This document shows positions 4,811 through 64,000 of a DNA stretch of 64,000 nucleotides, piece after piece. The stretch covers positions 39,549-103,548 of the forward strand of contig JAEOSU010000027.1 in the NCBI GenBank assembly GCA_016840165.1, read 5' to 3'. This stretch comes from Promethearchaeota archaeon (lineage in GTDB: Archaea > Asgardarchaeota > Lokiarchaeia > Sigyniarchaeales > SOKP01). Made by a program: the position numbers and the translations under genes. The first letter of the stretch is position 1, and every line of letters begins with the position of its first letter. The notes below the pieces were generated by a model. The model had not been told where the DNA came from. It ran no database searches and worked only from the letters and a program-made list of their open reading frames with translations.

Positions 4811-5065
4811 TTAGGCTCCACCAGCTTGGGTTGCCATTACGGTTATTACATCTTTTTTAGGATGGATACCGACCTTAGCGAACTTTAGATTGTCGGGTAA
4901 TACTTTTCCTTTGAAAATAAATTGGATCGCTAAAATTGGATTAAGTTTATACTCTCTTTGAACAGTTTTCTTAATTTCTGCTATAGATTGATTAGGATCT
5001 ACCTCAATAAGCTTAATTGCTTGATCGGGTGGAACACCAGTAAGTCTAAATCGATATTGGGTAAT
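4811..5065 (-). CDS. Ubiquitin-like (beta-grasp) modifier, 84 aa, ATT start, C-terminal GG-A; not in the ORF track
   Basis: Manual translation: (M)TQYRFRLTGVPPDQAIKLIEVDPNQSIAEIKKTVQREYKLNPILAIQFIFKGKVLPDNLKFAKVGIHPKKDVITVMATQAGGA*. EVDPNQSIAEIK resembles ubiquitin EVEPSDTIENVK; FIFKGKVL resembles LIFAGKQL; diglycine present; SD GGTGA 6 nt upstream of ATT. Confidence 0.88.
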   Translation of the reverse strand: MTQYRFRLTGVPPDQAIKLIEVDPNQSIAEIKKTVQREYKLNPILAIQFIFKGKVLPDNLKFAKVGIHPKKDVITVMATQAGGA

Positions 5066-25496: not shown

Positions 25497-25562
25497 AATT
25501 GAAGATTAATTTCTTAATAATTTTAGAAATTAATTTTTATGGAACATAAACGAGGTAATTGA

Positions 25563-26996
25563 ATTATTAAACCACCCCTTCCTTTCATTTGTACAAGATG
25601 TCATAAAGAATATGACTTAGACAAGATAATATATCAATGTCCTGAATGCAATGGGCTTTTATGGATAAAAACAGAGGTTAATAAGTATAAAACGCATTTT
25701 TCTAATATTAAATCCATATCTAAATTTTGGGATTTATATTTTACTCTACCAAATATCAAAATGGAATATAGAACTAGTATGGATGAAGGAGGTACGCCTT
25801 GTAGTGATTCGGAAAAGATTGGAAAAATAATTGGTTTAAAAGAATTGAGCTTTAAAAATGAAATAAAAAATCCAACCAATTCATTTAAAGACCGAGTAGG
25901 AGCGTTATTAATCTCACATGCTAGAAGCTGGCTTTATAATAAGACCATTTGTGCATCCAATGGAAACCAAGGAGCCTCAATCGCTGCTTATTGCTCATTG
26001 GAAGGAATAAAATGCGTTAACCTTATTCCAAATAAGCTTGATATGGGAAAGAGAGCCCAAATGATTGCATATAATTCTGAAATTATTATCAAGGGTGAAT
26101 TTGTTGATGAAACAATTAAATATGCATTGGATGATAAATATAAAGATTATTATCAGGCTACCCCAATCTATAATCCTCTTACAATTGAAGCTCAGAAAAC
26201 AATAGCTTTTGAAATTTGGAAACAGAGAGGAGTACCCGATTGGATAATTATACCCATGGGAAGTGGTGAACTGTTAGTAAGTTTATGGAAAGGTTTTTTA
26301 GAATTAAAACAGGCAGAAATAATTCATACTGTTCCAAAGCTAGTTGGGGTTCAATCTGCGTTATCTTCACCGATTGTAGATGAATTTATGAATAAAAAGA
26401 AATCTGATATATTAACTACAGATATTCGGAATTCTCATGCATTAGGTATATTAGTGCAGGAACCGATGTATAAAGACTTAGCAATTAAGTTTATAAAAGA
26501 AAGTACCGGAACTGTTATAGCCATTCCTGAGGAGTTAATCGTCTCATCAGTAGATGAATTGGTAAGAAGTGAAGGGATTTTCGCTGAACCATCTTCAGCA
26601 TTAACTTTAGCTGCGGTCCATGAATTAAATGAGCAAAAAGTTTTTGATTCAAACGATTGTATAGTATGCCTAATAACAGGAAGTGGTTTAAAAGCACCCT
26701 ATATTTTAGAAGCAATTTCTTCTCAAACCACTACCTCAGGAAAAGGTTCCATAATAATAACCAAGTTAAAAATATTATCTCAAATATCTCTATCTAGTAT
26801 AAGGGGTATAAGTGGGACAAAGATTAGAGATATTATTAGTTCTATAAGTTTAGCAGCTGTGTATCAGCATTTGTATGATTTAGAAAGTAAAGGTTTAATT
26901 TATCGCAAGAAAGAAGGAAAAATTGTGCTATACTTCATATCAGACACGGGTAAAAGAGTTCTAGACGCATTAGATATACTCCTTACCCTAATCTAA
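25563..26996 (+). CDS. thrC: Threonine synthase with N-terminal Zn ribbon and C-terminal winged-helix domain; non-AUG (ATT) start
   Basis: NPTNSFKDR PLP lysine, ASNGNQG, PMGSG, EPSSA, TGSGLK; the in-frame upstream extension encodes CTRC...CPECNG and is bounded by TGA at 25560. Confidence 0.88.
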   Translation: MIKPPLPFICTRCHKEYDLDKIIYQCPECNGLLWIKTEVNKYKTHFSNIKSISKFWDLYFTLPNIKMEYRTSMDEGGTPCSDSEKIGKIIGLKELSFKNEIKNPTNSFKDRVGALLISHARSWLYNKTICASNGNQGASIAAYCSLEGIKCVNLIPNKLDMGKRAQMIAYNSEIIIKGEFVDETIKYALDDKYKDYYQATPIYNPLTIEAQKTIAFEIWKQRGVPDWIIIPMGSGELLVSLWKGFLELKQAEIIHTVPKLVGVQSALSSPIVDEFMNKKKSDILTTDIRNSHALGILVQEPMYKDLAIKFIKESTGTVIAIPEELIVSSVDELVRSEGIFAEPSSALTLAAVHELNEQKVFDSNDCIVCLITGSGLKAPYILEAISSQTTTSGKGSIIITKLKILSQISLSSIRGISGTKIRDIISSISLAAVYQHLYDLESKGLIYRKKEGKIVLYFISDTGKRVLDALDILLTLI

Positions 26997-45610: not shown

Positions 45611-48352
45611 ATGTTTAATCCGGAAGAATTTAGAGACTATAATACTATTATTCCTTTTGTAGAGAAATTAAATAAGTATTTAAAAAAAAATAAACTAAAC
45701 AAAATCCCGCAAGTAATCGAGGCCTTAAATTCCTCATTGAAGGATGAAAATTTAGCTATTCCAGTCACATATGTTTTTAGTATATTGGCGGAGAGTGATG
45801 CATCATTCATTCCATCTGAATTAATTAAAAATTTAGAGCCTTATCTGGACTCAGATGAGAAAAAGCTACAATTAAACACTATCATTATCATTGGATTTTA
45901 TTTGATAAAGAATTCAGAGAAAATTGAGTCATATATTTCAAATTTTATCCAAATACTTAAACAAGATTCTGAAGAAGTTTTAGAAAATACTTATTATTTC
46001 TTGCAAAAATTCATTGAGTTCAATCGAAACTTGTTATGTCCATATAAAAATGTACTTTTAGAGTATTTAAAATCTGAAAGAAATGAAAAAAACCAGCTCT
46101 CATTGTTAGAGTTTATTGAATCTTGTTCTAATTTCGACTTTGATGATTTATATTCATTTAGAGATGTCGCTCTACATTTAATTTCACAATATCAAAATAA
46201 AGTTGATAGTAAAATTGTCTCTACGTTAAAAAGGAAAGTTTCCCAAGTTTTCCCAAAATTTCAGGAGAAAGACTTTGATGATATTGAAGTTGAGGAGCTT
46301 AGAAAAGAAATACAAGATTTTTTTATTATGAAAAAGTTTGACCTTAATAAAATAGCAAATGCCCAAGGAATAACTCCTAAAGGATATATTCAAACGCGAA
46401 AAAAAAGCTTGCTAATTGATAAAAAGTTCACTTTTTATACACGAATCAAAGATGATAATCAAATTTTTTATTATGAACTTGAAAAAGAAAAATTAAAAGC
46501 CTTTTTCGAAAGTTCTGATAAAATTTCAGGGAATCTAATTATAAATAGATTCTCTCAAATAATTGATGATGATTCAGAATTAGAATCATTTATGAATACA
46601 TTAATTAAATTAAAAATAATTAGTGGTTATTTCTCAGATCTACATTATTTTTATCCTTATAAGTATTTAAGGCAAGATATTTTGCAAAATATTCAAGAAA
46701 AGGGATTAGTTAACTTCGAAAAGTATAATTACATACCAATAGAATTTTTTAAAGCAATTATAAACGATATATCATCAAATATTAAGCAAATACTTCTCAT
46801 AGGAAAAAATGGAAGGATTTATTACTCTCAAGACAAGATTAATCGAACCATAAATAAGGAGGCAGCTAAGGCAAGTGTGATTGATTTAAAATCGTATAAA
46901 GAAAGATTAGGAGAAGATGCCTATTTAAAGTTAATAAACAACTTACCAATGGAGTATTTAACTAAATATCATGAAGCGACTCAATATCTTACTAACTTAG
47001 GTTTGATTAATGTACGTAAAGAAATTGATAATTCCAGAATTATTGGATATTTTTCTATTTTGGATGTTTCTGCAAAATTAAAATTACGTAAATCAATTCT
47101 TTATAGCATTTTAGAAGAATATATTGACATGCGAAGTGGAATATTTGATAAAAATAGAAATAATTTTTATTACTCGAAATTTCTAAATGAAAAAGTTAAT
47201 CAAATCAATCAGATTAAAGAGGAAAATAAGAGAAATGAATTGATAAATCAACTTGCCTCTGAATTAAATATTGATAAAAATGTTATCTTTGCGAAGTTAG
47301 AGGAAAATCTTAAGTTAATTGGTGAAGAGATCAAACAACAAAAGGAGATCAATATTAATGATTATGTTGACAAAATTGGCATGGATTATGAGGATTTTTT
47401 AAAATTTATAAGTAGTTTAAAGGTTGATTATTTCAAAAAAGGAGATAGCATTATCATCGAACAAGAAAGAATAATTGAAGCGAAAAATGAAATTAAATCG
47501 AGCCTAATTGTGAGATCTAAATCGGAGGATTTTATCGCATTTAGAGATCTCAATCTTAACCAGAATATTATTGACGATATAATTCGTGAATTAAAAGAAG
47601 AGAAAAAAATTATAGGGATTTCTTATGATGACGAAGATAAAATTAGATTCTATACCAAGAAAGGAATTGAGAATCTTATGCTAGAAAACCAACATTTTTT
47701 CTCTTTCCAAGATTTCTTTCCAGAAAAAACACTTTCTGAATCAGAAACACAGTTAATGCGTTCTATTTTAGATGATCTGTTGAAAGCGAAAAGATTATCT
47801 GGTACTTTTGACGAAAAGAATATGATTTTTTCCAGTAATGAAGTCCTCTTTGTTCAAAACTATAATACTATTCTTAATGAATTTGAAACCCTCATTCAAA
47901 AATATATACAATATTTCGAAGTTGAATTCCAAAAAATAAAGAAGACTTTAATAAAAAAAGAAGAAACTATTTTCCCAAATGAAATAAAAATCATCCAAGA
48001 AATAATTAAGCGGGTGAATAAAAATTATGTTCATTGGAGAAGCGGATTAGAGGCATTTGTTAGAAATGCTAATAGTCATTTGTTAAAAAAACAGGGGATG
48101 ACTCTTAAAAAATATAGAGCAATAGAAATCTCGCCTGATCGAAAGAAAGATGTCAAATTATTTGAGGAAGATCCAGAAGTAATTGATTTTTTGAATCAAT
48201 TTAAAGAATGGGTAAGAATTTTTAATGTTATTGAATTGAAATATGGCAATGTAATTTTTTATCAAAAAAGATTATTTAATAATCCAGATAATAAGGAAGA
48301 TCAAAAGAAATTAAATGATTTATTAATTCAACTAAAACTGATAGAAGGCTAA
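45611..48352 (+). CDS. Large HEAT-repeat plus tandem winged-helix (PCI/UFL1-like) protein
   Basis: N-terminal HEAT-like repeats; repeated helix-helix-wing units (LIKLKIISGYF, LKEEKKIIG, LLKAKRLSGTFDEKNMIF); C-terminal coiled coil. Confidence 0.6.
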   Translation: MFNPEEFRDYNTIIPFVEKLNKYLKKNKLNKIPQVIEALNSSLKDENLAIPVTYVFSILAESDASFIPSELIKNLEPYLDSDEKKLQLNTIIIIGFYLIKNSEKIESYISNFIQILKQDSEEVLENTYYFLQKFIEFNRNLLCPYKNVLLEYLKSERNEKNQLSLLEFIESCSNFDFDDLYSFRDVALHLISQYQNKVDSKIVSTLKRKVSQVFPKFQEKDFDDIEVEELRKEIQDFFIMKKFDLNKIANAQGITPKGYIQTRKKSLLIDKKFTFYTRIKDDNQIFYYELEKEKLKAFFESSDKISGNLIINRFSQIIDDDSELESFMNTLIKLKIISGYFSDLHYFYPYKYLRQDILQNIQEKGLVNFEKYNYIPIEFFKAIINDISSNIKQILLIGKNGRIYYSQDKINRTINKEAAKASVIDLKSYKERLGEDAYLKLINNLPMEYLTKYHEATQYLTNLGLINVRKEIDNSRIIGYFSILDVSAKLKLRKSILYSILEEYIDMRSGIFDKNRNNFYYSKFLNEKVNQINQIKEENKRNELINQLASELNIDKNVIFAKLEENLKLIGEEIKQQKEININDYVDKIGMDYEDFLKFISSLKVDYFKKGDSIIIEQERIIEAKNEIKSSLIVRSKSEDFIAFRDLNLNQNIIDDIIRELKEEKKIIGISYDDEDKIRFYTKKGIENLMLENQHFFSFQDFFPEKTLSESETQLMRSILDDLLKAKRLSGTFDEKNMIFSSNEVLFVQNYNTILNEFETLIQKYIQYFEVEFQKIKKTLIKKEETIFPNEIKIIQEIIKRVNKNYVHWRSGLEAFVRNANSHLLKKQGMTLKKYRAIEISPDRKKDVKLFEEDPEVIDFLNQFKEWVRIFNVIELKYGNVIFYQKRLFNNPDNKEDQKKLNDLLIQLKLIEG

Positions 48353-57074: not shown

Positions 57075-57181
57075 TAGAAAAATTTCTCTAAGAATGATTT
57101 AGACCTCGATAAATAAAGAAATTTATATTCTAGCAGTTATATTATCAATAGTAAAGTTTTAATTTCATTGGTGAGCTCCGA

Positions 57182-58108
57182 TTGGTTGATTACTGTAATG
57201 AATGTGGAAAGCCATTAAAGGAAAACGCAGAATTTTGTATATATTGCGGTAATGATGTGAGAAGTAGTCGTACAATCTCCAATATCCAAAATAATCAATC
57301 TAAAAAAGAAAATGATTTAAAAAAGCAGTCTAGATATCTTTTGAGTGATTCTCAGCGAAAATTGTTTTTAAATCGGATAATTCCTTATTTAATCATAGGG
57401 TGTACAATATGGTTAACCACAGAGATTTTGTTTAGTTTTCTATTTAAAGGTACTAGTTTTACACCGGAGTTTATTATAATTTATGTTAGTTTCATAATTG
57501 CTGACTTAATCGCTTTTTTTCTATTTTTTTTAACAGCCCGAAAGAATCAAATCTTAATCAGTTTGCTATTCTATTTTATGTTTACCTGCTTAGCTGGAAC
57601 GATAAGTTTACCTATTATTATGTTTAATCCTAACTTATCTCGGCAGGTAAATATGTTTATCGTAGCAAGTCTTGAAGGAACACTTATCGTTGCTTTATTA
57701 TCCATTTTATTAAGAAATAGATATCTCAATAAAGGGAATGTTTTTATTCATGTAATCTTATTTTTAGTTTTTTTAGCTCTTGCTGAAGGAGCTTTCTTTT
57801 TAATTTTTTCAATAGAAAACTGGATATTGACCTTATCTATTACGCTACCGTATATTCTAATTGTGTCTCTTATTATTATATTTTATGGTGCAATTGCGAT
57901 GAAAAATGAGGGTAAACAACCTTGGTCTTACATACTTTTTAAAGTATTGGGAATTCTTTTAATGTCATTATTAATAGCAGTTGCTGTTGCCATTTTAGTA
58001 TTAGTTATCATCGGTTTGGCTATTATCTGTGGCGATGGAAATTTAGACTTATCAGGTCTTAGCTTTAGTGGCTTTGGAGGTAAAAAGAAAAAGAAGAAAA
58101 ATACATAA
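57182..58108 (+). CDS. Zinc-ribbon plus about 7 TM membrane protein (possibly Bax inhibitor-1/YccA-like)
   Basis: CNECG...FCIYCG, seven hydrophobic helices, Lys-rich C-terminus; SD GGTGA before TTG. Confidence 0.7.
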   Translation: MVDYCNECGKPLKENAEFCIYCGNDVRSSRTISNIQNNQSKKENDLKKQSRYLLSDSQRKLFLNRIIPYLIIGCTIWLTTEILFSFLFKGTSFTPEFIIIYVSFIIADLIAFFLFFLTARKNQILISLLFYFMFTCLAGTISLPIIMFNPNLSRQVNMFIVASLEGTLIVALLSILLRNRYLNKGNVFIHVILFLVFLALAEGAFFLIFSIENWILTLSITLPYILIVSLIIIFYGAIAMKNEGKQPWSYILFKVLGILLMSLLIAVAVAILVLVIIGLAIICGDGNLDLSGLSFSGFGGKKKKKKNT

Positions 58109-58746: not shown

Positions 58747-60300
58747 ATGCCTGAAGAATTGGAAAGAAAAAAGTCAAATGATTTGAACAATCAACAAACT
58801 AAAGATATCGAATCTCAAGAGAATGAATCTGTTGTGGCTGTCAAAAGTAAGCCCGTGATTGTTCAAGCTGAAGCTTATAAAACTATCATCTTATATGCCA
58901 GCAGATATGCTAATAAAGAAATCCCAAAAGCAGATTGGAAAGAAATTTATGGCATACTAACAGGATATGTTGATGATGATTTTGTGCATGTTGAAAATGC
59001 GTATGCTTTAACTTTTGGCCATGATACTGATGTGCAACTAGATCAAAGACATTATATCTTTATTGATGAGATACAACAGCGATTAGATGAAGAAGCAAAA
59101 GGTCATTTTATTGTTGGATGGTTCCATTCTCATCCAGGGCTTTCACTCTTTTTCTCATATATTGATTTGATCAACCAGTTAGGATTCCAAGCCAAAAATG
59201 AGGATGCCATCGGTTTAGTTTTTGATCATACGTTATTGGGTAAAAAGAAAAAAGAGAAAATAGGAAATAACATTTTAACCAAGCATGACACTGGATTTGA
59301 GATCTATAAACTTACAGATGTAAATATGGATCCTAATGATCCTGTTTATGAGAATAATTATCATCGCGTAGATTATATTGTAGAGGGATTAAATAAATTC
59401 TTTTTTGCTAATTTGTTAGCAGAATTATCATCTCTTTCTTCTGCGGGGAGACCACTTCAGTCTGCTTATAAAGAGGTTAAAGAGATTGAAAAAAATGATG
59501 AGAAGAACCTTAATTTTTCTGAAATTGATTATAGTTCGGATACAAACTTATTAGTCGATATCCCTATGTCTGAAGATGTAAGTTTTAACTTGGACAAATT
59601 ATTTTATGATGTCCCTATTCAAAAAGAAGAAGGAGGAGTCACACAAGAAAAAGAAAAGGCAGAAAAATTAATTTATGAGGGAAATTTAGCTTTTAAAACA
59701 AAAGACTATTATAGTGCAATTGAGAAGTATAGACAAGGTATAGAAATTTATAAAGATTTGAATGATTTTGAGCGCAGTATGGACTTATTGCGAACTTTGA
59801 TAAAACTATGTATTACCAATGATCATTTTGTATTAGCAAAAGAATTTACAGACGATTTATTGGATTTAGCAGAAAAACATAATAATCAATTCTATAAAGG
59901 CGTGGCTAACTATATGGAAGGGTACTTATTACTAAAGGAAGGAGATAATACATTTTTAAAGACAGCATTAAACAAAATTCGTGATTCTGCGATGTTATTT
60001 GAGAAGGAAAGGGATTATGCAGGTGCTGGGATGGGTTTCAATAAAATTGGAACTATTTATCAGACTAGGTTAGAGAATTTTGATAGTGCTTGTCTTTTTT
60101 ATAGGGAAGCAATAGAAAATTATAATAGAGCAATTGTTAATAGCCATCCCTTAAGAAAATCCTTCTGGAGTATGCCAGAGTCATTACAAGAGAAAATTCT
60201 TGAATTAAAAGATTTAATAGATGAGCTGATTGACAAACTTAATCCTAGTATACGAAGAAAAATATTAGAAGACCTCCAATCAATCCGGTATAATTTTTAA
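58747..60300 (+). CDS. JAMM/MPN+ metalloprotease (Rpn11/CSN5-like) fused to TPR/SNAP-like helical repeats
   Basis: EIYGIL...GWFHSHPGLSLFFSYID is a complete E...HxH-x7-S-x2-D motif; C-terminal helical repeats. Confidence 0.9.
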   Translation: MPEELERKKSNDLNNQQTKDIESQENESVVAVKSKPVIVQAEAYKTIILYASRYANKEIPKADWKEIYGILTGYVDDDFVHVENAYALTFGHDTDVQLDQRHYIFIDEIQQRLDEEAKGHFIVGWFHSHPGLSLFFSYIDLINQLGFQAKNEDAIGLVFDHTLLGKKKKEKIGNNILTKHDTGFEIYKLTDVNMDPNDPVYENNYHRVDYIVEGLNKFFFANLLAELSSLSSAGRPLQSAYKEVKEIEKNDEKNLNFSEIDYSSDTNLLVDIPMSEDVSFNLDKLFYDVPIQKEEGGVTQEKEKAEKLIYEGNLAFKTKDYYSAIEKYRQGIEIYKDLNDFERSMDLLRTLIKLCITNDHFVLAKEFTDDLLDLAEKHNNQFYKGVANYMEGYLLLKEGDNTFLKTALNKIRDSAMLFEKERDYAGAGMGFNKIGTIYQTRLENFDSACLFYREAIENYNRAIVNSHPLRKSFWSMPESLQEKILELKDLIDELIDKLNPSIRRKILEDLQSIRYNF

Positions 60301-60400
60301 CTATTATTTTTGGCAACTTTTCATTCAATTTCACCTTATTTAAACAAAAAAATTATATTTTAAGAATAATTATATTACTTACTTCTTTTGGTGATTAATA

Positions 60401-61081
60401 ATTCCACGTAGAAAGCAGAAAATTAAATATTCAAGAAAAATCGCTTGTAAATTTCTCGAACCGATGGGCGATATCAGTAATAATCTACAACCACTCTGTT
60501 ATTGTAAAGAGAGAGATTTAATTCTTGGTAGAAAAGCATATGTTTGCCAAGTCTGCGAATTATATGAACCCACAAAGTCAAATCAGAAAATTTCAGAAAT
60601 TTATGAAGATAGTAAAAAGAAAGCAGAAAAGAAAATCAAAGAAAAAAAGATTGCACTAGAAGATTTCGAATTAGCAGAAATGCAAATTGAGGAAGAAATT
60701 GATCTTACTATTGATGAATTTGAAGAAGAAGATGAGGAAGTACCTTTAAAATTCGAGAAAAGAAAAGCTGGAAAAGAAGAATTGGGCGATAAAGAAGAAT
60801 ATGGTGAAATAGAATGTCCATTTTGTGGTGAAGTGCATGAGGATTTAGCAACCCACTTACAAACTTGTGAATTTGCGCCCGATGATGCAAGTATCGAAGA
60901 TATTCTTCCGAGTAAATCTAAAAGAAAGAAGCGGAAACCCACAACTGGAAAATCTAAAAGTCAAACTGGAGGTACGAAAGAAAAATGTCCTTATTGTGGG
61001 AAAGAATACACGAGACTTGGAAGGCATATCACTTCCTGTCCTCAGAGACCTAAAGATGAGGATAAAGATTCCGATGAATAA
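60401..61081 (+). CDS. Multi-zinc-finger protein (N-terminal Cys cluster, acidic linker, two CCHC fingers); probable ATT start
   Basis: CPFC-x9-H-x3-C and CPYC-x9-H-x3-C; in-frame extension (M)PRRKQKIKYSRKIACKF upstream of ATG 60464, with SD GGTGA 6 nt before ATT. Confidence 0.8.
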   Translation: MPRRKQKIKYSRKIACKFLEPMGDISNNLQPLCYCKERDLILGRKAYVCQVCELYEPTKSNQKISEIYEDSKKKAEKKIKEKKIALEDFELAEMQIEEEIDLTIDEFEEEDEEVPLKFEKRKAGKEELGDKEEYGEIECPFCGEVHEDLATHLQTCEFAPDDASIEDILPSKSKRKKRKPTTGKSKSQTGGTKEKCPYCGKEYTRLGRHITSCPQRPKDEDKDSDE

Positions 61082-61109
61082 TCCTTAAACTTAGATAGAA
61101 ATATATTTT

Positions 61110-62045
61110 ATGAACATTAATATGGAAAAATCAAGGAATATATATTACTGCTACCCGGTATATCGCCCTCCTTCAGAACATGCATCTCTATTAATCCAAC
61201 TGACTGAGGGTTGTACTTATAAATGTGATTTCTGCGTATCAAACTTAAATAAGAATTTTAAAGTACGAGCTATAAATGATGTTAAGAAAGATTTAGATAC
61301 TGCAAATAATCTTTATGGCGCTAGGGTAAGGAAGCTCTTTTTTTTGGATGGTAATGCAATGGTTACTCCCTTTAAAACATTATTAGAAGTAACTGAGTAC
61401 GCATTCAAGTTGTTTCCTGAGCTTCAAAGAGTTGGCGTATATGCTCACGCAAAAGACATTCTTAAAAAGTCAGACAAGCAACTTGAGGCTCTATCTGAAG
61501 CAGGATTGAAAATTGCCTATGTAGGTTTTGAAAGTGGAGATGATCAACTCCTTCAGTCAATCAATAAGCATGCTACAAAACAAGATTATATTGAAGCGTC
61601 AAAAAAGTTAATGAACGCGAATATTACACTCTCTGCAACATTAATCAATGGATTAGGGGGCGCTAACAAACCTGAAATATCAAGAATTCATGCCATTGAA
61701 TCAGCTGACTTAGTAAATAAAATTTGCCCAAGTGACGAAAGGATTTGGTATATCTCTTTTTTAACTCTAATGATTCCTCCCGGTACTGTCTTTTATCAAA
61801 GAATAAAGCAAGGTGAATTTAAAGAGATGAATTCCTTTGAAATTCTTCAAGAATTAAAGATTTTTATGGAATATATCAATTTTGTGAATAAAAAAGCAAA
61901 TTGCGTATTTCGATCGAACCATGCTAGTAATTATCTCCCTCTTAAAGGAGTGCTTGAACGAGATAAAAAAAAAATTATTGATACTATTAATTATGGTTTA
62001 AAAAATAAAGAAGCGTTACGTCCTGAATTTTACCGGGCTCTATGA
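61110..62045 (+). CDS. Radical SAM protein (paralog of 52318-53256)
   Basis: YRPPSE, CTYKCDFC, FFLDGN, GFESG, NHASNY. Confidence 0.92.
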   Translation: MNINMEKSRNIYYCYPVYRPPSEHASLLIQLTEGCTYKCDFCVSNLNKNFKVRAINDVKKDLDTANNLYGARVRKLFFLDGNAMVTPFKTLLEVTEYAFKLFPELQRVGVYAHAKDILKKSDKQLEALSEAGLKIAYVGFESGDDQLLQSINKHATKQDYIEASKKLMNANITLSATLINGLGGANKPEISRIHAIESADLVNKICPSDERIWYISFLTLMIPPGTVFYQRIKQGEFKEMNSFEILQELKIFMEYINFVNKKANCVFRSNHASNYLPLKGVLERDKKKIIDTINYGLKNKEALRPEFYRAL

Positions 62046-63613: not shown

Positions 63614-64000
63614 CTAATTTTTATCCTTTGAGTCTGTTTTCTCAATTTCTTCCTCTTCAGCTTCTTCCTCTTCTTCTTCTTCAATTTCTTCCTCTACTTC
63701 TTCCTCTTCCTCTATTTCCTCCTCTTCTTCTTCCTCTTCAGCTTCTTCCTCTACTTCTTCCTCTTCCTCTATTTCCTCCTCTTCTTCTTCCTCTTCAGCT
63801 TCTTCCTCTTCTTCCGCTTCCTCTATTTCCTCCTCCTCTTCTTCTTCTTCAATTTCTTCCTCTACTTCTTCCTCTTCCTCTATTTCCTCCTCTTCTTCTT
63901 CTTCAATTTCTTCCTCTTCTTCCGCTTCCTCTACTTCCCCCTCTTCTACTTCTTCAATTTTTTCGACCTTTTTCTTGACTTTTGGCTTCTTTATCTTTTC
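63614..64000 (-). CDS. Partial CDS: C-terminus of a protein with a very long poly-Glu tail
   Basis: Open minus frame from the window edge: EKIKKPKVKKKVEKIEEVEEGEVEEAEEEE...EKTDSKDKN* (TAG at 63614-63616). Confidence 0.85.
   Translation of the reverse strand, partial: EKIKKPKVKKKVEKIEEVEEGEVEEAEEEEEIEEEEEEEIEEEEEVEEEIEEEEEEEEIEEAEEEEEAEEEEEEEEIEEEEEVEEEAEEEEEEEEIEEEEEVEEEIEEEEEEEAEEEEIEKTDSKDKN
63640..63958 (-). repeat. Imperfect tandem GAA/GAG-rich coding repeat (units of about 54-57 nt)
   Basis: Recurring EEEEEEEIEEEEEVEEE(I/A) units. Confidence 0.85.

Follow-up and report, generated by a model that had tools for sequence, protein, structure and literature searches.

A conserved zinc-finger gene of a Promethearchaeota archaeon with a probable AUU start codon, and signs of frequent Shine-Dalgarno-led AUU and AUA starts in the same genome

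A gene encoding a zinc-finger protein was located on the forward strand of the window, by which we mean the whole 64,000-nucleotide stretch of DNA that was analysed. A JAB/MPN-plus-TPR gene precedes it by 100 nt and a radical-SAM gene follows it (58747-62045, +), and this order is kept in close loci, with the JAB/MPN-plus-TPR neighbour present in 27 of 27 and the radical-SAM neighbour in 22 of 27. The features at its 5' end are as follows:

60380-60395 (+): conserved 5' leader, TACTTCTTTTGGTGAT, nearly identical among same-genus loci
60390-60395 (+): GGTGAT, the Shine-Dalgarno (SD) sequence, of which GGTGA is 60390-60394; 5-7 nt ahead of the start column in relatives
60392-60394 (+): in-frame TGA inside the SD, which bars every upstream start in this frame
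60395-60400 (+): spacer TTAATA, the N6 after GGTGA
60401-60403 (+): ATT, the proposed AUU start codon; its column is ATT, ATA or ATG in 30 close loci and ATG in other genera
60401-61081 (+): predicted full coding sequence, 226 codons plus TAA (61079-61081), with no internal stop
60404-60463 (+): 20-codon N-terminal segment, PRRKQKIKYSRKIACKFLEP, absent from the ATG-based call; pN/pS 0.125 in nine loci
60464-60466 (+): internal ATG (Met22), the start in public gene calls; its column is variable in relatives

Read directly, the window gives ...TACTTCTTTT GGTGAT TAATA ATT CCA CGT AGA..., and the frame opened by ATT 60401 continues through CCA CGT AGA as PRRKQKIKYSRKIACKFLEP. The ATG at 60464 is in the same frame, 63 nt or 21 codons away, as codon 22; no ATG, GTG, or TTG occurs in this frame of the window from TAA 60341 to 60463. 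The 16S rRNA of the same genome ends in ...GGATCACCTCCT, to which GGTGAT is a perfect complement, and the motif is therefore a perfect six-base SD. Its spacing to ATT 60401 is 6 nt, and the ATG and TTG starts of the genome peak at 5-7 nt. An earlier sequence-only reading of this DNA had described the GGTGA-N6-ATT geometry, the shared frame with ATG 60464 and the TGA within the SD, all of which were confirmed here. The TGA is not a separate feature, because a start 6 nt after GGTGA always has one.

Searched in six frames, 39 of 40 related genomes contained the gene, and same-genus matches reached back as far as the first or second residue of the stop-to-stop frame; a scan of genome contigs for the gene gave 8 loci only. 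Thirty close loci were assembled, three of them apparently duplicates of assemblies already in the set. In these 30, the codon ahead of the first proline was ATT in 16, ATA in 11, and ATG in three (L019, L043, and L045). The leader was nearly identical, tttttttggtgatcatc, in three loci that carry different codons (ATT in L010, ATA in L011, ATG in L019). At all readable loci from other genera of the order, the alignment column of ATT 60401 held ATG-CCN or ATG-GCN, opening proteins that begin MPKKSSKSKK.., MPRRSKKKRD.., or MAKKKKTTK... The simplest reading of these alignments would be a single start column whose codon has drifted among ATG, ATT, and ATA.

The availability of canonical codons varied among the relatives. 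Six loci (L001, L002, L013, L014, L039, and L040) lacked any canonical codon in frame from the upstream stop to the start column, and in three others (L003, L004, and L009) the sole one was a TTG 27 codons upstream, in an AT-rich region of non-coding appearance. More than 85 codons separate the start column from the next canonical codon downstream in L004, L009, L012, L014, and L039, so that a start at that codon would delete the entire N-terminal domain. A canonical start for the conserved protein is thus impossible in the window and in L002, L014, L039, and L040. About half of the relatives carry an in-frame GTG (within the GGTGA of the SD) or TTG 2-4 codons upstream, and a canonical start is therefore possible in those species. 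The presence of these codons in some relatives is also what would favor a canonical upstream start joined to the gene by stop-codon read-through or frameshifting. Against this, the window frame from TAA 60341 to TGA 60392 lacks ATG, GTG, and TTG; SD-to-start spacing is 5, 6, or 7 nt across relatives, which means that no upstream frame is conserved; and pN/pS in the upstream pseudo-codons was 0.7-1.1, with no conserved upstream ORF or slippery site seen. We find such an arrangement barely credible.

Codon-level inspection of the extension showed that PRRKQKIKYSRKIACKxLEP is kept while the differences are mainly synonymous (CGT/CGA/AGA, AAA/AAG, ATT/ATA/ATC, TCA/TCT/TCG). In the nine loci without a nearby canonical alternative, pN/pS over the 20 codons was 0.125, as compared with 0.21 in the following 30 codons and 0.72 in the upstream pseudo-codons of the same frame; pS in the latter was 0.43-0.49 versus 0.63 at coding-region synonymous sites, the leader changing less. 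Judged by these ratios, the segment of 20 codons between ATT and ATG is under purifying selection. The ATG itself is not a conserved start, because its column reads TTA, GCT, ATA, CTA, or AAA in relatives.

The public annotation nevertheless starts the gene at ATG 60464, the first canonical codon and the one picked by gene callers, which would make the preceding 63 nt an untranslated leader, coding-like by chance or conserved as RNA. This we regard as having only a slim chance of being correct: relatives have codons for Leu, Ala, Ile, or Lys in this column, the extension combines its low pN/pS with many synonymous changes and an invariant cysteine (C16), a strand of the structural model (residues 19-25) crosses Met22, and no SD lies ahead of this ATG. 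Another candidate is ATA 60398, one codon 5' of the ATT, which would give (M)IPRRK. It is near-cognate, ATA is enriched genome-wide like ATT, and it is positioned 3' of the in-frame TGA; however, it follows GGTGA by 3 nt, as against the genome peak of 5-7 nt, and its column is variable (AAT, AAA, ATT, GTT) whereas the column next to the proline is always ATT, ATA, or ATG. A start at ATA 60398 thus seems quite unlikely. The coding-type conservation of the extension, the ATT/ATA/ATG column, the ATG of other genera, and the non-conserved internal ATG together uphold the AUU start that had been proposed for this gene.

The protein read from ATT 60401 contains these features:

60428-60580 (+): N-terminal Cys-cluster domain, residues ~10-60 (C16, C33, C35, C49, C52); pLDDT 83-92, Cys columns invariant or nearly so
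60446-60448 (+): TGT codon of Cys16, invariant in the alignment of 29 sequences
60815-60868 (+): C2HC finger 1, CPFCG-x9-H-x3-C; strand-strand-helix in the AlphaFold2 model
60986-61039 (+): C2HC finger 2, CPYCG-x9-H-x3-C; C196, P197, C199, H209, and C213 invariant, other genera included

An alignment of 29 sequences with order-level divergence had invariant columns at K7, C16, L32, C35, R38, C49, C52, C196, P197, C199, H209, and C213. C33 is replaced by Ser in some relatives, which leaves C16, C35, C49, and C52 as the remaining four-Cys ligand set. The suggestion that the extension supplies a cysteine completing the N-terminal cluster therefore holds, in that C16 lies within the extension, is invariant, and belongs to this set; the conserved cluster that contains it is probably a zinc site. 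In the AlphaFold2 model, residues 11-60 form one domain (pLDDT 83-92, and 83 for residues 11-20) with a strand at 19-25 that spans Met22; this domain is followed by a long charged helix and then by two strand-strand-helix fingers, the spacing CPxCG-x9-H-x3-C occurring twice in the protein.

Comparison with known families gave little beyond zinc fingers. Pfam returned only zinc-finger rows, all below threshold (zf-Di19, E 0.006, 17.2 bits against a 27.5-bit cut-off). Foldseek gave no match in the PDB at E ≤0.001, only weak C2H2-finger rows at E ≥0.8; the wide VIA-align search gave no significant solved structure (top Z 3.7, dominated by the long helix); and the Atlas feature search scored 0.78, under the useful level. 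Homologues numbered 403, the named ones labelled Promethearchaeota, Lokiarchaeota, or other Asgard, and the precomputed Pfam label PF28519 was attached to 118 of the 120 homologues listed (403 found). A role for this zinc-finger protein near a ubiquitin-like system is offered as a lead only.

Elsewhere in the window, the bare motif GGTGA-N6-ATT was observed four times where 2.7 would be expected, a count reached by 24 of 100 shuffles. Because it is not above chance, this count is no evidence alone; an excess emerges when the downstream open frame is counted as well. The sequence-only reading had spoken of three GGTGA-N6-ATT starts in 64 kb. That description stands for the zinc-finger gene and for the Ubl gene, whose layout is the same (minus strand, GGTGA-AAAAAG-ATT with ATT 5065), but the third case, probably ATT 25563, follows GAGGT-N6 instead. 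The two further genes are:

4814-5065 (-): Ubl gene, 84 codons, Pfam ubiquitin E 2.5e-10; region to 5076 with the SD
25543-26993 (+): PLP-dependent enzyme, GAGGT-AATTGA-ATT with ATT 25563; PALP domain from residue 72

The Ubl protein ends in ..QAGGA, and the sole canonical codon of its frame is an ATG nine codons ahead of the stop, which makes it undetectable by standard gene callers. In the PLP enzyme no canonical codon occurs until 66 codons downstream, and a start there would lose an N-terminal CxxC..CPxC ribbon. Two other occurrences of the motif were rejected as ATT starts. The one at 48013 is inside a 913-aa gene. The one at 57170 fits the pattern because its ATTG overlaps TTG 57182, and for no other reason; the ATT frame is closed by TGA one codon later, and a zinc-ribbon ORF begins at TTG 57182. 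Two side observations were made in the window. The region 57170-58108 (+) has a GGTGA-N7-TTG start (57182) and encodes a membrane protein that has a zinc ribbon at its N-terminus (MVDYCNECG..). At 63614-64000 (-), an open-ended ORF of almost nothing but Glu-rich repeats (EEEEIEEEEE..) runs off the end of the window.

The frequency of such starts was assessed over the whole genome (3.6 Mb, 31.6% GC), every GGTGA being taken. For a spacing profile we counted, at each spacing, the codons that open at least 100 codons and have an in-frame stop close upstream. At spacings of 5, 6, and 7 nt, in that order, the numbers of long frames were:

ATG: 16, 18, 17
TTG: 8, 12, 6
ATT: 3, 12, 4
ATA: 6, 11, 3
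AAT (control): 1, 5, 4
TAT (control): 0, 0, 0
TTT (control): 1, 1, 1
AAA (control): 6, 6, 3

ATG, TTG, and GTG have a common spacing peak in this genome, at 5-7 nt. A strict test then required GGTGA at a spacing of 5-7 nt, a stop no more than five codons upstream with no canonical codon between, a frame open for 100 codons or more, and the first eight downstream codons free of canonical starts. Long and short frames were distributed as follows:

ATT: 10 long, 120 short
ATA: 8 long, 100 short
54 control codons: 7 long, 2423 short
ATG: 30 long, 50 short
TTG: 15 long, 80 short
GTG: 4 long, 14 short

The odds ratio against the 54 control codons was ~28, with Fisher p values of 1.2e-9 for ATT and 4.2e-8 for ATA. 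Enrichment of ATT and ATA was seen with SD words of six, five, and four nucleotides, observed (expected) counts being:

6-mer SD word: ATT 8 (0.5), ATA 7 (0.4); ATG 36, TTG 15, GTG 7
5-mer SD word: ATT 21 (3.1), ATA 10 (2.3); ATG 109, TTG 38, GTG 10
4-mer SD word: ATT 37 (16.7), ATA 24 (12.2); ATG 299, TTG 84, GTG 21

The near-cognate share grows with the length of the SD word, as SD-assisted use predicts. From these conservatively filtered counts, AUU or AUA would start at least about 25-30 genes in the genome, that is, two to three dozen.

Twenty strict candidates were screened with Pfam, and in five of them a Pfam domain starts ahead of the first canonical codon:

NAPRTase_N (pncB): ATT start, domain from residue 8, first canonical codon 15
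GFO/IDH/MocA Rossmann fold: ATT start, domain from residue 2, first canonical codon 42
IGPD (HisB), contig C102:141-743 (-): ACG start, domain from residue 32, first canonical codon 98
GDPD: ATC start, domain from residue 7, first canonical codon 10
ABC_tran: ATA start, domain from residue 20, first canonical codon 22

A HisA-like protein with a CTG start carries an N-terminal LKKPIPAIDL.. ahead of canonical codon 14, with Pfam matching a later stretch only. Contigs with ACG, CTG, and ATC starts behind GGTGA are C102:141-743 (-), C50:5631-7130 (-), and C51:3836-4573 (+). For pncB, GGTGA-N6-ATT is present in orthologues from three species, which belong to two genera; in other genera an ATG stands ~8-10 codons ahead of the LTDFYQLTM motif. 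Some strict candidates may be false, being without homology support (e.g. the antisense-looking frame at C18:2843).

Were the AUU start of the zinc-finger gene real but isolated, the other cases in the window would be chance and the lineage would have no such habit. The chance-level count of the bare motif in the window agrees with that idea, but the genome-wide odds ratios (~28, p <1e-7), the independent homology support in at least six other genes, and the conserved start of the aIF1 gene (below) all speak against it, and we judge it very unlikely. The sequence-only reading had supposed frequent SD-assisted AUU use in this lineage; the genome-wide count, ~28-fold over control codons, and the domain homology in several genes bear this out. 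On sequence comparison and the structural model, the zinc-finger gene is very probably a 226-codon ORF that starts at AUU 60401, as dozens of other genes in the genome appear to do.

Among these other genes is the single SUI1/aIF1 gene:

contig C49:34399-34737 (-), locus L047: SUI1/aIF1 gene, with no canonical codon ahead of its CPxC..CxC zinc knuckle

Its first canonical codon falls inside the SUI1 domain, and its product aligns with the aIF1 of M. jannaschii, beginning at chain residue 3 of the latter. A canonical codon before the zinc knuckle was found in none of the 27 readable family loci. An ATT (ATC in two) five codons ahead of the Cys codon is conserved in the 24 closest loci, and three more distant loci likewise have ATT a few codons upstream; in other families of the order the start is TTG, GTG, ATG, or ATA. 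A conserved ATT start on this gene would be compatible with relaxed start selection or with translational control, and fits either. The aIF1 of S. solfataricus rejects AUU in vitro (PMC4705826), and the efficiency of AUU here could therefore be low.

Neither ARAGORN nor RF00005 recovered the initiator tRNA in the assembly (rated 99.7% complete). ARAGORN found 11-13 tRNAs and RF00005 20, many with long introns (genes of 100-132 nt), and none of the 20 RF00005 matches had a CAU initiator arm. Reading by ordinary tRNAi is for this reason an assumption. The same gap would leave room for AUU not being read as such, either because editing of the mRNA turns it into AUG or because a dedicated initiator tRNA serves AUU and AUA. 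The occurrence of ATT, ATA, ATC, ACG, and CTG at homology-supported starts is a better fit to single-mismatch reading by one tRNAi, and we know of no U-to-G editing system in archaea; both variants are highly improbable.

The steps by which initiation at AUU 60401 would proceed are as follows: GGUGAU would pair with the 16S rRNA 3' end and position the 30S subunit; AUU, 6 nt downstream, would thereby be placed in the P site; and the ordinary initiator Met-tRNA, we infer, would read it by a third-position mismatch, giving a product (M)PRRKQK... that carries the N-terminal basic stretch and Cys16. The ancestral ATG start of the family would have given way to ATT or ATA in an AT-rich lineage, where AUU and AUA, when preceded by a strong SD, may serve as starts of many genes, including Ubl, pncB, and aIF1.

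ATT, ATC, and ATA are given as rare starts in NCBI table 11, and gene callers accept ATG, GTG, and TTG only. Asgard proteomes, on which eukaryogenesis studies draw, therefore hold truncated or missing proteins. The exact 205-aa ATG form of the zinc-finger gene is present in NCBI and Logan, shortened just as the expectation of under-annotation had it. The ten nearest database clusters (197-229 aa) begin MGDISNN, and other clusters start at the GTG of the SD (MIIIPRRK, VIIIPRRK) or at a TTG (MTIPRKK); the MPRRKQK N-terminus occurs in 27 of the 120 homologues listed. The annotation loss amounts here to 21 residues and one probable zinc ligand, and the Ubl gene is left without any callable start.

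Archaea and eukaryotes have a common start-selection core of e/aIF1, aIF1A, and aIF2. Eukaryotes scan without an SD and use near-cognate starts at a few percent of AUG, mostly for uORFs or extensions. The eukaryotic near-cognate starts have the common factor set (e/aIF1, e/aIF1A, e/aIF2) as their likeness to the present case but, unlike those described here, do not act as the only start that a housekeeping gene has. Canonical archaeal SD-led initiation at AUG, GUG, or UUG has the same GGUGA SD, the same spacing of 5-7 nt, and the same kinds of genes served. It differs in that reviews give AUG, GUG, and UUG only and that S. solfataricus aIF1 rejects AUU (PMC4705826); a 2020 review of archaeal initiation makes no mention of AUU (PMC7531240). 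A limited literature search found no report of Asgard archaea starting genes at AUU or AUA.

The bacterial infC gene, which encodes IF3, resembles the present case in its SD-led AUU initiation and in that the gene of the proofreader itself begins at AUU (infC there, aIF1 here); the ordinary initiator tRNA reads AUU in bacteria, and the same is presumed here. The differences are that IF3 is not of the aIF1/eIF1 fold, and that AUU is used by a handful of genes there and by dozens of ordinary genes here. Both infC (AUU) and eukaryotic eIF1 (AUG in poor context) are autoregulated via weak starts (PMC4705826). In eIF1 the feedback acts through a weak start on the eIF1 gene (PMC4705826), and the aIF1 gene here would likewise be on a weak start; for aIF1 only the precondition of such regulation was seen, namely the conserved ATT.

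A bolder proposal, possible but in our opinion doubtful, is that in this Promethearchaeial family third-position (AUN) loosening under a strong SD is joined to feedback at the level of aIF1, a loop suggested by the AUU start of the aIF1 gene itself. Under this proposal, the stringency of proofreading would control, as one translational regulon, all genes that start at AUU or AUA, among them pncB, Ubl, and the zinc-finger gene with its JAB link. The free exchange of ATG, ATT, and ATA at one start column among sister species suggests that AT pressure and a strong SD may together erode the AUG rule. With AUU or AUA as the sole start of housekeeping genes, and with aIF1 itself on AUU, such a lineage would be a natural system for the setting of start-codon stringency and for its possible use in control.
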